Below, piece after piece: positions 10,253 to 17,220 of a stretch of 64,000 nucleotides of DNA; positions within the stretch are counted from its first letter, which is position 1, and each line of letters opens with the position of its first letter. The notes below the pieces were generated by a model. That model was not told the DNA's origin and did no database searches. It worked only from the letters and a program-made list of their open reading frames with translations. Origin of the DNA: Candidatus Gottesmanbacteria bacterium (GTDB lineage Bacteria; Patescibacteriota; Microgenomatia; UBA10105; UBA927); NCBI GenBank assembly GCA_023245335.1, contig JAHFKK010000001.1:156152-220151 (forward strand), given 5' to 3'. The translations under genes and the position numbers were made by a program.

Positions 10253-10585
10253 AGGAGCGTGAATTGAGGACTAAGTATAGCACGAACACAGACCTGAATC
10301 ACCAAGTGTGTTTGACATTTTCATTCACATGAAAGAAAATACCAGCCAATATGCCGTTTATCGTTGCTATAGGTAATAAGGCAAAACCCTATCCCCCAGG
10401 AGAACACTTCAACGCCGGACGAGGGAGAGAACGGTACGTGTCGACAATACAGGGCACCGAAGAATGGCATAATAAACGTCTCGCCCGTTCTCATCCCCCA
10501 GGCACAATAATTCCCATCGACTTCGGACTATCTGTGGTAACCGTTGATGAGAAAGACCCAAGGTATACAGATCTCTTAAAAAGAG

Positions 10586-12451
10586 CTACCTGATTTTCGC
10601 GCCCTTTGGCATGCCTTCAGCAGAAATAAACAGCGGTTTTAATTTATCCGCTGAATCCACAGCTAAAATCATCCCCTGACTCTCTTCATCCATCATTTTC
10701 CTTGGTGCCAGATTGGTAATGAAGAAAAACTGCTTGCCGACAAAATCTTCCGGCGTATACCCGAATCCCCGAACACCGGTAAATATAATACGCGATTTGT
10801 CTTCAGCAATATCCACCACTAATCGAATGAGCTTTTCGCTCCCCTCTTTATTTTTCGCCTCAAAAACCTTGCCGACACGGATCTCCATACGTGCGAACTC
10901 TTCTATGGAAAGGGTCGACCCGGCGGTAAGTTTGGCGTATCCAAAAAATGAATAGCTATTTGTAAGACCTATGGCCTCCCGCGCTCCAGTCATCGTCTCG
11001 ATAGCAATAGCCGTTGCACGCTCCTGTCCGCGTTTCAGGATATCCTTAACTATTGAGGGGTTGGCTTTCAGCTCGTCATACGCTTTTCTTGCAGGCGCGA
11101 AGTACATCACCAGGCATTCAAATAAGTACTTCTTGACGTCTACGTCGGCGACCGCTCCCTGTTTGTAGCTTTCTTTAAGTTCGGACACCTTACCGGGTTC
11201 ACCGAAAAAATCCAAGTATGTAAATACCATATTCCCCTCGATGTGTCCCGGGTCAGTTGCGTGCTTCCGTGCGGGGTCCGTAAAAGTGCCATGTACCTGC
11301 TTTTCTATGACTGCTTCGGGCTCAAACATACTAATAATGTTTCCGAGCGTCTTACTCATCTTTCGTTTGCCGTCAGTGCCTAATACCACAGCGACTTCTT
11401 CCGGGATGTAGGGCTCTGGCAATGTAAAAACTTTCTTCTTATAAATTTTGTTGAAGCGCTCTGCAATGTCGCGGGTAATCTCTATATGTTGTTTCTGATC
11501 CTTCCCTACCGGAACGAGATCTGCCTGATATAAAAGAATGTCCGCGGCCATAAGCATGGGATAACTGAACAACCCGACGTTAATGTCATCTTCCATGACA
11601 TCTTTCTGCAATTTATCCTTATAAGCATGCGCGCGCTTGAGAAGTCCCAACGGTGTCACGTTATTGAGGATAGACTGACACTCGGTATGCATCGGTACGT
11701 CAGACTGACGGAAAAAAACGATTTTTTCGAACTGCTCTTTTGTCAAAAATCCTTTCAGAAGTGCCAATTCGTTTAGTACTAACGCCTCGACGTTATGCTG
11801 CAGCTGTTTTTTATCTTGTATCGTCGTCAATGCATGCAGATCAGCGACCATGAGATACGTCTCGTTCGTTTTGGAAAGCTCAATAAATTGCCGCACGGCG
11901 CCAAGATAGTTACCTATATGTAGTGACCCGTCGCCGCTCGGGGTAATGCCCGAGAGGCAACGTTTTCCACTCGGTGCTTCTTGTGTGTGGTCAAAAAACG
12001 TAAAGTCCCCAACCTGTCCATGGTTTACAAAAACTAAATCCTTCGCCTCCATTGCCATACCCATCGTCTTTATTCCCCCAGTCCCGTACGCTTTGCCGAT
12101 GGACAAAACTTTTTCATCCACATAATAGGAAATGTCTAAACCGAGGTATGGTACAAGACCCACTTCTGTCCCCAATGAATGCAAATCTTCCTTGGATGCG
12201 AACACTAATTTTTTCACTCCGGCTACTTTTTTGAGTTTTTCTTGGTCAATCTGTGTATCAGCCCGCTTCGTTACCCCGATTATTCCTTTTTCCGTACGGT
12301 ACAAAATCGTTACCATGGCATTTTTCATTTTTATCCCATGAAACGCTGCGTGGGACGGGACATCCGGCGCCAATTCTTCCGGCAACGGAATGAATGTGTA
12401 TTCAACCTTTTTATCATCCAGAATATTTTTGATTTTGTCTTTAAGATTCAT
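10586..12451 (-). CDS. trpS: Tryptophanyl-tRNA synthetase with N-terminal YbaK/ProX-like deacylase domain and C-terminal Trbp111/EMAP-like tRNA-binding domain
   Basis: The class I core has HIGH-like SLHIGNYLG and KMSKT (RKMSKTLGN), with TrpRS-like GITPSG. The N-terminal ~150 aa resemble the YbaK editing fold. The C-terminal ~110 aa, EIRVGKVFEAKN...GMILA, form an OB-fold tRNA-binding domain. The start was placed at ATG 12451, which is preceded by GGAGA. The ORF-track start 12526 lacks an RBS. Confidence 0.8.
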   Translation of the reverse strand: MNLKDKIKNILDDKKVEYTFIPLPEELAPDVPSHAAFHGIKMKNAMVTILYRTEKGIIGVTKRADTQIDQEKLKKVAGVKKLVFASKEDLHSLGTEVGLVPYLGLDISYYVDEKVLSIGKAYGTGGIKTMGMAMEAKDLVFVNHGQVGDFTFFDHTQEAPSGKRCLSGITPSGDGSLHIGNYLGAVRQFIELSKTNETYLMVADLHALTTIQDKKQLQHNVEALVLNELALLKGFLTKEQFEKIVFFRQSDVPMHTECQSILNNVTPLGLLKRAHAYKDKLQKDVMEDDINVGLFSYPMLMAADILLYQADLVPVGKDQKQHIEITRDIAERFNKIYKKKVFTLPEPYIPEEVAVVLGTDGKRKMSKTLGNIISMFEPEAVIEKQVHGTFTDPARKHATDPGHIEGNMVFTYLDFFGEPGKVSELKESYKQGAVADVDVKKYLFECLVMYFAPARKAYDELKANPSIVKDILKRGQERATAIAIETMTGAREAIGLTNSYSFFGYAKLTAGSTLSIEEFARMEIRVGKVFEAKNKEGSEKLIRLVVDIAEDKSRIIFTGVRGFGYTPEDFVGKQFFFITNLAPRKMMDEESQGMILAVDSADKLKPLFISAEGMPKGAKIR

Positions 12452-12527
12452 ATTTTCTCCTTTGATATTACCATTACTTTCGTTTTGGCGCCCCACCGAT
12501 TTAGGGTAGGGCGCCTCGTACGACATT

Positions 12528-13838
12528 TTACCCTTTCATACGACCAGATAAAAATTCTTCATATGCACCCAGGTCCAATAGTCCGTGACCGGAAAGGTTG
12601 AAAAGAATCACTTTCTTTTTCCCTTCTTCTTTCGCACGCTTCGCTTCCACTATAACCTGCTGTATGGCATGCGCTGACTCCGGCGCAGGAATGATCCCCT
12701 CGGTTTGCGCAAATAACTGCGCTGCCTCAAAGACCTCGCGTTGTCCGTAGGCCACTGCTTCTATCAGTTTCTTGTAATACAAAAAGCTGATAAGCGGCGA
12801 GTCGCCATGATACCGCAGTCCCCCTGCGTGTATCGGCGACGGCACAAAGTCGCTGCCCACGGTATACATCTTGAGCATCGGCGTCATGCCAGCCGTATCG
12901 CCGGAATCATAGCGGTATTCGCCTTTGGTAAGAGACGGGCACGCATCCGGCTCCACGGCGACGACCCTAAGATTTGGCTTTTTCCCGGAGATCTTGTCTG
13001 CCAAAAACGCGAAACTCACTCCCGCGAGATTACTCCCTCCTCCGCAGCACCCGACGATGACATCCGGATACGCGCCTTCGCGTGCTAGCTGTTCTTTGGC
13101 CTCAAGACCAATGATCGACTGGTGCAGCATGACGTGATTGAGGACGCTACCAAGTGCATAGTGCGCACCGTCCGTCGTTGCCGCCACCTCTATGGCTTCC
13201 GATATGGCCATACCAAGACTGCCGGGAGTATGCGGATCTTTGGCAAGAAATGATCTTCCGGCTTGCGTTTCCCGTGATGGACTCGCAGAGACGTCAGCGC
13301 CATACAAATGCATCACCGTCTTTCTATACGGCTTTTGCTCGTACGAACTTTTGACCATAAATACTTTGCACTTGAGGTCAAAGAGTTTACACGCGAGCGC
13401 AAGCGCCGACCCCCACTGACCCGCTCCTGTTTCGGTCGTCAGCATACCCACGCCCTCCCGTTTGTTGTAATACGCCTGCGCAAGTGCGGTATTTAATTTA
13501 TGGCTCCCGACCGAGGAAACGCCCTCATACTTAAAGTAAATCTCTGCCGGCGTACCTAACGCTTCTTCCAAACGCTTCGCCCGCAAAAGCGGCGACGGCC
13601 GATACATGGCATACAACTCCCGCACTTCGTCAGGAATCGGAACAAACTCATCGAGCGTCACTTCCTGCTTGATGAGCTCCATCGGAAACAGCCGGGCTAA
13701 AGCCGCAGGACCTATCGGCTGCTTTGTCTTCGGATCCAATGGTGGAGCCGGTAATTCATGGACGTATTTATTGAGATAGTAGGAAAGATTGAGATACGTC
13801 GTCGGAATCTTCACTTTTTGCATAATATTTTGTTTCAT
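12528..13838 (-). CDS. trpB: Tryptophan synthase beta chain, TrpB2-type (stand-alone)
   Basis: 436 aa PLP enzyme of long TrpB2 length, with GSHKLN and GGGSN motifs. GGAG lies upstream of the ATG. No trpA is adjacent. Confidence 0.85.
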   Translation of the reverse strand: MKQNIMQKVKIPTTYLNLSYYLNKYVHELPAPPLDPKTKQPIGPAALARLFPMELIKQEVTLDEFVPIPDEVRELYAMYRPSPLLRAKRLEEALGTPAEIYFKYEGVSSVGSHKLNTALAQAYYNKREGVGMLTTETGAGQWGSALALACKLFDLKCKVFMVKSSYEQKPYRKTVMHLYGADVSASPSRETQAGRSFLAKDPHTPGSLGMAISEAIEVAATTDGAHYALGSVLNHVMLHQSIIGLEAKEQLAREGAYPDVIVGCCGGGSNLAGVSFAFLADKISGKKPNLRVVAVEPDACPSLTKGEYRYDSGDTAGMTPMLKMYTVGSDFVPSPIHAGGLRYHGDSPLISFLYYKKLIEAVAYGQREVFEAAQLFAQTEGIIPAPESAHAIQQVIVEAKRAKEEGKKKVILFNLSGHGLLDLGAYEEFLSGRMKG

Positions 13839-13932: not shown

Positions 13933-14334
13933 TCATTTCAATAACTGTTCAAGCCGAACGGCTTTCATCATCGGACGGTCATGAATCACATGTCTCGTCG
14001 TCTTTGACGGAAACAGCTTGTTTTCCTTTGCCATTTCTATAACCGCCCGTTTAATCATCTTCATGAGCATTCCTTTTCGCCGCATATACACGCGCACGTT
14101 TGTATCGCTATACCGCACATAGGCTACCGGTACCCGTTTGGCCCCAAGATCACGAAGCGCCCGGACGCGGTGATGGCCGTCCAAAATCACTTCGGAATTT
14201 CTTTCGACAATCACCGGCCGACGAACAACACCATCTGTATGAATTGCAGAACGCACCGCACGTAATCGGGTACTACTCACCCGCTCATGCCCGATGAGTT
14301 TATCGATACGCACCAATATAATTTTCTGTTTCAT
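13933..14334 (-). CDS. ParB/Srx-fold (ParB N-terminal-like nuclease domain) protein
   Basis: 133 aa with an ILDGHHRVRALRDLG motif typical of ParB-like nuclease/sulfiredoxin fold. Confidence 0.45.
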   Translation of the reverse strand: MKQKIILVRIDKLIGHERVSSTRLRAVRSAIHTDGVVRRPVIVERNSEVILDGHHRVRALRDLGAKRVPVAYVRYSDTNVRVYMRRKGMLMKMIKRAVIEMAKENKLFPSKTTRHVIHDRPMMKAVRLEQLLK

Positions 14335-14337
14335 AGG

Positions 14338-14409
14338 CGGGCGAGGTAGGCTTCGATCCTACGACACGAGTTTTGGAGACTCGCGTTTTTCCAACTAAAC
14401 TACTCACCC
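14338..14409 (-). tRNA. tRNA-Trp (anticodon CCA)
   Basis: Hand-folded from the minus strand: GGGTGAG TA GTTT AGTTGGAA AAAC G CGAGT CTCCAAA ACTCG TGTC GTAGG ATCGAAG CCTAC CTCGCCC G. It has a 7-bp acceptor stem with one GU pair, GG in the D loop and anticodon CCA. T-loop position 54 is A, which is atypical. CCA is not encoded. Confidence 0.75.
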
Positions 14410-14411
14410 AT

Positions 14412-14460
14412 AAAAAAACCCTTGTAAATCCACGAGGAACATCTCGTAAACTTACAAGGG
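14412..14460 (-). terminator. Rho-independent terminator-like hairpin + U-run (minus strand)
   Basis: Inverted repeat CCCTTGTAA...TTACAAGGG at 14419-14460. On the minus strand it is followed by a 7-nt T-run (plus A-run at 14412-14418). Confidence 0.4.
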
Positions 14461-14494
14461 CCTTTGTGGCTATACCACCTTGCGCTGTTATCCT

Positions 14495-15088: not shown

Positions 15089-15158
15089 CGCGGGGTAGTG
15101 TAAAGTCGCACAGGAGGCTCATAATCTCCTAGGCCGGGTGCGATTCCCGGCCCCGCAA
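15089..15158 (+). tRNA. Initiator-like tRNA (anticodon CAU) with atypical D and T loops; possible tRNA-fMet or pseudo-tRNA
   Basis: Hand-folded: CGCGGGG TA GTGT AAAGTC GCAC A GGAGG CTCATAA TCTCC TAGG CCGGG TGCGATT CCCGG CCCCGCA A. The acceptor stem (CGCGGGG/CCCCGCA with a C1-A72 mismatch and A73) and the anticodon loop CUCAUAA are identical to E. coli tRNA-fMet. However, the D loop is only 6 nt and lacks G18G19, T-loop position 55 is G, and only 2 of the 3 G-C pairs of the initiator anticodon stem are present. Confidence 0.5.
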
Positions 15159-15170
15159 CACAGTACGGAT

Positions 15171-17121: not shown

Positions 17122-17193
17122 CGCCAGGGTAGCTCAGTGGTAGAGCAGCATCTTCATAAGGTGACGGTCGTGGGTCCGACCCCCACTCCTGGC
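17122..17193 (+). tRNA. tRNA-Met elongator-type (or tRNA-Ile2-lysidine) anticodon CAU
   Basis: Hand-folded: GCCAGGG TA GCTC AGTGGTA GAGC A GCATC TTCATAA GGTGA CGGTC GTGGG TCCGACC CCCAC TCCTGGC A. It has a G1-C72 pair and no initiator features. T-loop position 55 is C, which is atypical. Confidence 0.75.
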
Positions 17194-17220
17194 ACATATG
17201 GCAATAGACGTGTGTCAGAT

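Follow-up and report, generated by a model that had tools for sequence, protein, structure and literature searches.

What is a domain with the fold of tRNA-editing enzymes doing at the N terminus of a tryptophanyl-tRNA synthetase (TrpRS)? The question is raised by the trpS gene in a 64,000-nucleotide stretch of DNA from a Candidatus Gottesmanbacteria bacterium (GenBank assembly GCA_023245335.1, contig JAHFKK010000001.1, positions 156,152 to 220,151 of the forward strand; hereafter the window, numbered from its first letter), whose product joins a YbaK-like domain, a TrpRS core and a tRNA-binding OB-fold domain in one chain. We find that the fusion of TrpRS to a YbaK/INS-type domain is conserved and apparently new to the literature searched, in which no description of it was found. 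The domain belongs to a clade that has lost the catalytic lysine of its superfamily while keeping the rest of the signature, and the racemase and TrpB2 genes in its genomic company hint, without proof, at a role in guarding against D-tryptophan.

According to a 2024 review, the superfamily comprises the INS domain of prolyl-tRNA synthetase (ProRS) and eight trans-acting families, whose members are single-domain proteins apart from INS itself and the N-terminal fusions of ProXp-ala to ProRS in Plasmodium and trypanosomatids; the review describes no INS-family fusion to synthetases other than ProRS (PMC11295145). The sole earlier TrpRS with an editing-type appendage that we found in the literature searched is that of Plasmodium falciparum, whose N-terminal AlaX-like domain has been described as unique to alveolates (PMC3240968). 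It differs from the window protein in that its appendage adopts the AlaX rather than the YbaK/INS fold and its TrpRS is of the eukaryotic type. Archaeal threonyl-tRNA synthetases, which carry an editing domain resembling D-aminoacyl-tRNA deacylase (DTD), show that cis recruitment of a trans-editing fold is possible (PMC11295145).

A three-domain TrpRS

Read from its first ATG, the trpS open reading frame spans 10586..12526 on the minus strand (646 residues) without interruption. A Shine–Dalgarno-like AAAGGAG (12457..12463, minus), read directly from the sequence, stands 5 nucleotides before a further ATG at 12451, and the closest TrpRS homologues are 617–624 residues long and begin with MNLKDKIE…, which makes 12451 the likely true start. 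The complete coding sequence, stop codon included, would then occupy 10586..12451 (minus) and encode 621 residues, in agreement with the extent given in a preliminary description of the locus made from the sequence alone. Residue names such as Val47 refer here to the 621-residue protein, and Pfam domain positions to the 646-residue frame. The concern, voiced in that description, that a frameshift might have joined two separate genes can be set aside, because the frame is uninterrupted, four independently assembled contigs encode the identical 621-residue protein, and half of the 120 best TrpRS relatives (60) have the N-terminal domain as well (54 as a single copy and 6 in tandem). The named sources of these domain-bearing relatives are Gottesmanbacteria, Roizmanbacteria, Microgenomates and Patescibacteria.

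The three-domain architecture proposed in the preliminary description holds, with the Pfam families tRNA_edit, tRNA-synt_1b and tRNA_bind, suggested there for a domain parse, all matching above threshold. The catalytic and anticodon-binding core covers residues 164–496 (10964..11962, minus) and matches tRNA-synt_1b (Pfam positions 189–475, 198 bits) and the NCBIfam model for trpS, TIGR00233 (275.3 bits against a cut-off of 176.75). Both motifs previously read in it, SLHIGNYLG and KMSKT, are present: HIGN lies at residues 178–181 (11909..11920, minus) and KMSKT at residues 364–368 (11348..11362, minus), and the columns H178–N181 and K364–K367 are invariant among 50 homologues. Judged from its sequence, the gene is best explained as a functional bacterial-type TrpRS (class Ic) of Microgenomates/Patescibacteria with two optional accessory modules.

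The N-terminal module, earlier placed at about residues 30–170, has the YbaK-like fold claimed for it within other boundaries, at about residues 1–153 (11993..12451, minus). It matches tRNA_edit (PF04073) at Pfam positions 57–165 with 44.5 bits, against a gathering cut-off of 25.5. A profile built from 31 such domains (alignment A1) and compared with solved structures finds APE2540 (1wdv, E = 3.4e-18), a ProRS INS domain (5znj, 1.2e-13), ProXp-x (2cx5, 7e-13) and YbaK (2dxa and 1dbu, about 5e-11), and reaches ProXp-ala (5VXB and 1VJF) with an E-value of only about 1e-3 over a partial region. The AlphaFold model of the isolated domain is confident (predicted local distance difference test, pLDDT, 92.4; predicted template modelling score, pTM, 0.85). 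In Foldseek searches it superimposes on 2cx5, 1wdv and 1dbu with a template modelling score (TM-score) of 0.83 and root mean square deviations of 1.7–2.2 Å; the fold is YbaK-like, not DTD-like, and the ProXp-ala structures are among its weakest matches within the INS family. Two family assignments were considered and rejected: YbaK proper, the Cys-tRNA(Pro) deacylase, for which TIGR00011 gives 17.7 bits against a cut-off of 153.25, and ProXp-ala, on account of the weak profile and structural matches just described. The lysine expected of both is missing.

The best structural and profile matches are thus ProXp-x (Thermus thermophilus TTHA1699) and APE2540, proteins of similar size (about 150 residues) that share 20–23% identity with the window domain but retain the lysine (in 'VKTL' and 'VKSL') and the GXXXP loop. 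ProXp-x is a deacylase of Abu- and Ala-tRNAs (PMC11295145). The ProRS INS domain has the same fold (TM-score about 0.7) and is likewise part of a synthetase; it shares P24, T48, K52, R63, D65, K72, G98 and D112 with the window domain. Its host, however, is the class-II ProRS, whereas the window domain sits on a class-I TrpRS, lacks the lysine and has an altered GXXXP loop.

At the other end of the protein, residues 516–621 (10589..10906, minus) form an OB-fold tRNA-binding domain of the Trbp111/MetRS-C type, as found at the C terminus of methionyl-tRNA synthetase (MetRS) and in CsaA and the EMAPII family. It matches tRNA_bind (PF01588) at Pfam positions 549–642 (64.6 bits, cut-off 27) and scores 92.7 bits with TIGR00399, under the equivalog cut-off of 116.65; its model is a β-barrel with strands at residues 524–608 and a pLDDT of about 90. 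Its best NCBIfam matches are metG_C_term and the C termini of MetRS, and, unlike in bacterial MetRS, the domain is here attached to TrpRS, where it would most likely provide additional non-specific tRNA affinity, as in MetRS. The full-length model (pLDDT 83, pTM 0.56) shows three well-folded domains joined by low-confidence linkers. Across orthologues, identity in the N-terminal domain (59–78%) comes close to that in the TrpRS core (67–82%) and in the OB domain (54–81%), which speaks for constraint on the N-terminal domain.

A clade without the catalytic lysine

Conservation of the catalytic lysine of YbaK had been put forward as a check on the editing assignment, and it is here that the domain departs from its relatives. 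In alignments to five solved structures, the lysine of 'vKTL' falls just before the invariant Thr48, at a position where the window protein has Val47 (codon GTA, 12311..12313, minus). The column holds Ala, Ser, Val, Thr or Pro, and never Lys or Arg, in the roughly 146 members of the clade. Among 164 unique domains, from proteins and translated loci, Lys or Arg occurs there in only 13. These are outgroups without exception, either INS domains of ProRS or canonical proteins that stand alone, and 11 of the 13 also have Pro at the last position of GXXXP, which indicates that the register of the alignment is sound. The counterpart of the GXXXP loop in the window protein, identified from its sequence and the column statistics, is G98-L-V-P-Y102 (12146..12160, minus), with the glycine kept and the proline shifted by one position.

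The lysine has been described as strictly conserved across it, and its replacement by alanine 'dramatically impairs deacylation' in every member tested; it steers the phosphate between A76 and C75 into the active site and is the main determinant of A76 binding, while the chemistry itself is substrate-assisted and involves the 2'-OH of A76 and a backbone carbonyl (PMC10164551). All characterised members use the lysine and the GXXXP loop (PMC11286415), the equivalents of the lysine being K279 in Escherichia coli ProRS, K46 in YbaK and K45 in ProXp-ala (PMC10164551, PMC11286415). A branch that lacks this 'strictly conserved' residue therefore offers a test of how essential it is to the chemistry of the fold.

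The fused members of the clade comprise three sub-types: type A, to which the window domain belongs, type B, a second N-terminal type, and type C, which was encountered solely in second position in tandem proteins of 780–800 residues. Exact GXXXP occurs in type C only, and type B and the free-standing forms have no proline at either loop position. The free-standing proteins, of about 153 residues, fall in the same lysine-less clade. Tandem lysine-less pairs, with type A or B followed by type C, were seen in the TrpRS proteins P0014, P0028, P0093, P0095, P0099, P0106 and P0176 and in loci L015 and L024.

Beyond the altered sites, the domain retains P24, T48, K/R52, R63, D65, K72, G98, D112, G126 and D138, most of them in common with the ProRS INS domain and each 85–97% conserved over the 164 unique domains, which share only about 20% identity. 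We considered R63 and K/R52 as clade-specific replacements for the lost lysine and rejected both, as the same residues occur in ProRS INS domains that keep it. The retention of the other signature residues, together with the existence of free-standing copies, argues for a domain that is constrained and not decaying, and the loss of the lysine and of the exact GXXXP loop looks like a specific functional shift instead of general decay.

An exhaustive HMMER search of 1.84 billion representatives with the N-domain profile returned 5333 matches at E ≤ 1e-3 and only 24 at E ≤ 1e-30, the best of which show the same pattern at the lysine column. Among the matches listed, all those above about 103 bits that cover the site are without the lysine, and at lower scores canonical proteins with Lys and GXXXP occur side by side with further proteins of about 150 residues that lack the lysine, so that the lysine-less state extends beyond the TrpRS-linked group.

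Within that group, the domain is found on divergent synthetases. Type A is fused to the TrpRS lineage of the window and to another only 33–35% identical to it (L027 and L028; 277–284 bits with TIGR00233), which is without the OB domain, a free-standing Trbp111-like gene being present separately in L028. Type B occurs on further TrpRS cores from metagenome loci, some of them 33–39% identical to both other lineages. The domain nearly always sits at the N terminus of the synthetase; P0196 bears it at the C terminus, and six proteins have it in tandem.

Fusion partners, genomic neighbours and possible function

Among the best 150 of the 5333 profile matches, which the classification of synthetase fusions covers, every fusion that was classified to an enzyme involves TrpRS (in many proteins), tyrosyl-tRNA synthetase (TyrRS) or aspartyl-tRNA synthetase (AspRS), several shorter fragments can be placed only in the Trp/Tyr class-I family, and the only other fusion is to RuvX. 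The TyrRS fusions are P0246, a bacterial-type enzyme with an S4 domain and a lysine-less YbaK-like domain, and the archaeal-type P0295 and P0275, whose domains contain the lysine. All AspRS fusions have the lysine as well: three are of the bacterial type (P0243 and, as fragments, P0285 and P0292) and one, P0296, is non-discriminating. In a rough neighbour-joining tree without support values, the AspRS and archaeal-type TyrRS fusions lie among the canonical lysine-containing members and, by that placement, look independent. We found no description of TyrRS or AspRS fusions to YbaK-like domains in the literature searched, and these, together with an editing-fold domain on TrpRS, would widen the catalogue of synthetase quality-control architectures. 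P0275 goes with P0322 and P0243 with P0321. In L073–L075, the loci of these TyrRS and AspRS fusions, the gene context contains no racemase and nothing else informative.

To our knowledge, TrpRS, TyrRS and AspRS have no editing function of their own; their documented mischarging problem is with D-amino acids and is handled by free-standing DTD. The substrates named for DTD1 are D-Tyr-, D-Asp- and D-Trp-tRNA (PMC1807948), each made by one of the three synthetases found here with INS-like fusions. By analogy, we propose the DTD1, DTD2 and DTD3 proteins as possible functional counterparts of the window domain, with an unrelated fold; no equivalent of the Gly-cisPro motif by which DTD achieves chiral selection was identified in the domain. 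A query with an E. coli DTD sequence brought up no DTD-like gene in the window or across 650 kb of related loci, a sample that covers only small parts of each genome and is therefore uninformative on this point. In the literature searched, nothing relevant turned up on the properties of ProXp-7, ProXp-8 or ProXp-9, which are listed as uncharacterised families (PMC11295145), or on YbaK-like domains linked to D-aminoacyl-tRNA.

The gene neighbourhood adds a second line of evidence. In the orthologue group of the window gene (21 GTDB loci, found using type-A sequences only), trpS is followed by ftsH in most loci, and about half of those scanned (8 of 16) have a tRNA-Trp gene upstream. TrpB2 immediately precedes trpS in 4 of the 21, with synteny in L009, L015, L017 and L019. 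The commoner upstream neighbour is an amino-acid racemase other than MurI (150 bits with TIGR00035, where the cut-off is 93), which stands just before trpS in nine loci, in seven of them within a few bases and in two at about 80–110 nucleotides; in L015 and L017 the order is trpB2, racemase, trpS. In ten further loci, the same racemase stands ahead of type-B fused genes and of free-standing copies, so that about 19 of some 62 relevant loci have it upstream of an N-domain gene or fused trpS. The free-standing copies furthermore adjoin genes for TrpR-like proteins (TIGR01321, 61 bits, just under the cut-off), for exporters of the EamA and LysE families and for an AlaX-like protein. This recurrent order of racemase, YbaK-like domain and trpS, with TrpB2, points to a self-contained module for tryptophan salvage and charging in auxotrophic Patescibacteria and gives a directly testable hypothesis on how these organisms keep translation homochiral.

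Some of these neighbourhoods deserve description in their own right. In L005 (4142–6477) and L006, genes for a TrpR-like regulator, an EamA transporter (with weak similarity to YddG, an exporter of aromatic amino acids), an amino-acid racemase and a free-standing lysine-less YbaK-like protein form an apparent four-gene operon with no trpS nearby. In L007 (5286–7586) and L008, the free-standing lysine-less gene is flanked by an AlaX-like gene (a faint tRNA_SAD match) and a LysE-family exporter gene, and a second tRNA_edit gene (104 residues) lies on the opposite strand; these genes could constitute a small island devoted to trans-editing and export. One 745-residue protein, P0110 (L070, 236–2473), joins a racemase, TrpRS and the OB domain and occupies the same syntenic slot before ftsH. 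The best 120 matches to a racemase profile contain no second racemase–TrpRS fusion, only free-standing racemases of about 235 residues, and P0110 could be either a genuine but rare fusion or an artefact of assembly.

We tentatively read the N-terminal domain as a hydrolytic proofreader that acts in cis on mis-acylated tRNA-Trp, most plausibly D-Trp, a proposal that is quite possibly right, if somewhat short of probable. The domain would still receive the 3' end of the aminoacylated tRNA-Trp held by the TrpRS body and would hydrolyse an error product specific to TrpRS, the most likely substrate being D-Trp-tRNA-Trp (chiral proofreading) and the alternative being Trp analogues produced by TrpB2 or the racemase, the Trp-salvage enzymes encoded nearby. 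Since the chemistry of the fold is substrate-assisted and the lysine serves mainly to steer the phosphate of A76, tethering to the synthetase could lessen the need for it. We infer catalysis mainly from the conserved pocket signature, the free-standing copies in operons and the Trp/Tyr/Asp pattern of the fusions. The preliminary description had held that the fusion 'implies proofreading': the missing lysine, on the very check put forward there, and the altered GXXXP loop speak against that inference, and proofreading specific to TrpRS is still plausible from the linkage to racemase, TrpB2 and TrpR-like genes and from the restriction of the classified synthetase fusions to TrpRS, TyrRS and AspRS.

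Several observations weigh against this proposal. The missing lysine is the main evidence against catalysis, as this hallmark is gone from the whole clade, including free-standing members that cannot rely on tethering, and the GXXXP loop is changed in types A and B. Close relatives whose cores show about 80% identity do without the N-terminal domain, among them P0060, which is 79% identical and lies in a locus syntenic with the window, so that the domain is accessory to aminoacylation. The inter-domain geometry is undefined in the full-length model, given its pTM of 0.56, the 64 kb of the window hold no racemase gene, and Foldseek also finds YbaK-like domains in the non-editing proteins SadB (9qzk) and 3mem. 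The Trp/Tyr/Asp pattern was read from the best 150 of the 5333 matches only; furthermore, because the AspRS and archaeal-type TyrRS fusions carry canonical lysine-containing domains of other branches, it may not speak to the lysine-less clade.

The loss of the lysine and of the exact GXXXP loop could instead mean that the domain is an inert remnant of an editing domain, kept as a binder of the acceptor or CCA end, a scaffold or a chaperone, which would raise the affinity for tRNA-Trp or protect Trp-tRNA-Trp and, in organisms whose translation machinery is reduced, would act together with the C-terminal OB domain. Both catalytic hallmarks have gone, close relatives dispense with the domain, and a second tRNA-binding appendage on the same protein suggests a trend towards extra RNA affinity; a defunct INS-like N-terminal domain on yeast ProRS, reportedly described by SternJohn et al. 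in 2007, would be a precedent. We nevertheless consider an inert remnant somewhat unlikely. The lysine that was lost is itself the main determinant of A76 binding, so that catalysis is not obviously more demanding than binding of the CCA end alone, the remaining residues of the pocket are strongly conserved, and free-standing copies in operons with a racemase and amino-acid exporters fit an enzyme better than an RNA-binding appendage. The same operons would suit a ligand smaller than tRNA, such as the free amino acid (L-Trp or D-Trp), Trp-AMP, in which case editing would be pre-transfer, or a derivative of Trp. Coupled to the genes for the racemase, TrpB2 and exporters, the domain would then be a sensor, a regulator or an enzyme that hydrolyses a metabolite. 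Even where trpS is not nearby, the clade shows linkage to TrpR-like, racemase and EamA/LysE exporter genes, the residue lost is a contact to the tRNA phosphate while those of the pocket are kept, and SadB and 3mem, which bear YbaK-like domains, are signalling proteins. Repeated fusion to synthetases, however, favours an aminoacyl-tRNA or adenylate as substrate, and we know of no INS-superfamily member that acts on free metabolites; a small-molecule role thus seems quite improbable. To the remaining option, raised in the preliminary description, of a canonical YbaK/ProX-type deacylase for Cys- or Ala-tRNA(Pro) simply tethered to TrpRS, we give next to no credence: the Pfam tRNA_edit match and a set of closest solved relatives that includes the ProRS INS domain and ProXp-x would accord with it, but the lysine is absent, the TIGR00011 and ProXp-ala matches given above are poor, and the gene context is consistently related to Trp and never to ProRS.

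Proofreading of D-Trp-tRNA-Trp by the window domain may be one instance of something wider, in which INS/YbaK-fold domains were recruited repeatedly, in TrpRS, TyrRS and AspRS fusions and as partners in racemase operons, as built-in D-aminoacyl-tRNA deacylases of ultra-small bacteria and archaea. We regard this generalization as distinctly unlikely. If true, it would amount to a fourth, structurally unrelated solution to chiral proofreading, with the lysine-less TrpRS-linked branch employing a new substrate-binding mode.

The tryptophan gene cluster of the window

The adjacency of TrpB2 and tRNA-Trp genes to trpS, already remarked upon in the preliminary description, is confirmed, and both lie on the same strand as trpS. 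Directly upstream of trpS, across a 76-nucleotide gap, is a gene for a TrpB2-type enzyme (TrpB-like and dependent on pyridoxal phosphate; 12528..13838, minus), which scores 686 bits with NF009057 against a cut-off of 366. The tRNA-Trp gene (anticodon CCA, discriminator G73; 14336..14409, minus) was recognized by ARAGORN, Rfam and inspection of the sequence about 1.9 kb upstream of trpS. Between tRNA-Trp and TrpB2, with a start codon 1 nucleotide from the end of the tRNA gene, lies a 133-residue open reading frame (13933..14334, minus) resembling the N-terminal part of SerK, an ADP-dependent serine kinase, and SbnI, an O-phosphoserine synthase; its match to NF053625 (73 bits) is below the cut-off and covers the N-terminal 84 residues only. 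Some TrpB2 enzymes are reported to use O-phosphoserine, for which reason the product of this frame may feed TrpB2.

A 20-bp terminator-like hairpin stands directly upstream of the tRNA-Trp gene (14417..14462, minus), and no convincing terminator was seen in the window between tRNA-Trp and the end of trpS, so that tRNA-Trp, the SerK-like frame, trpB2 and trpS may form one transcription unit. With Rfam at gathering thresholds, neither a T-box nor any other leader RNA was found for trpS.

A few minor observations complete the picture of the locus. The records of L009–L013, L017, L019, L022, L024 and L026 are titled 'uncultured Gammaproteobacteria bacterium' despite a locus of Patescibacteria type, and these titles look like placeholders or wrong labels. 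An 80-residue open reading frame on the opposite strand (10351..10593, plus) overlaps the 3' end of trpS by 8 nucleotides; it is a gene in the public annotation (L001–L003), has no Pfam match and may be spurious. Beside the Trp cluster, about 2 kb apart, are two tRNA-Met(CAT) genes (15089..15159 and 17123..17195, plus), and L013 has the same tRNA-Met pair together with two tandem tRNA-Trp genes upstream of its racemase and trpS.

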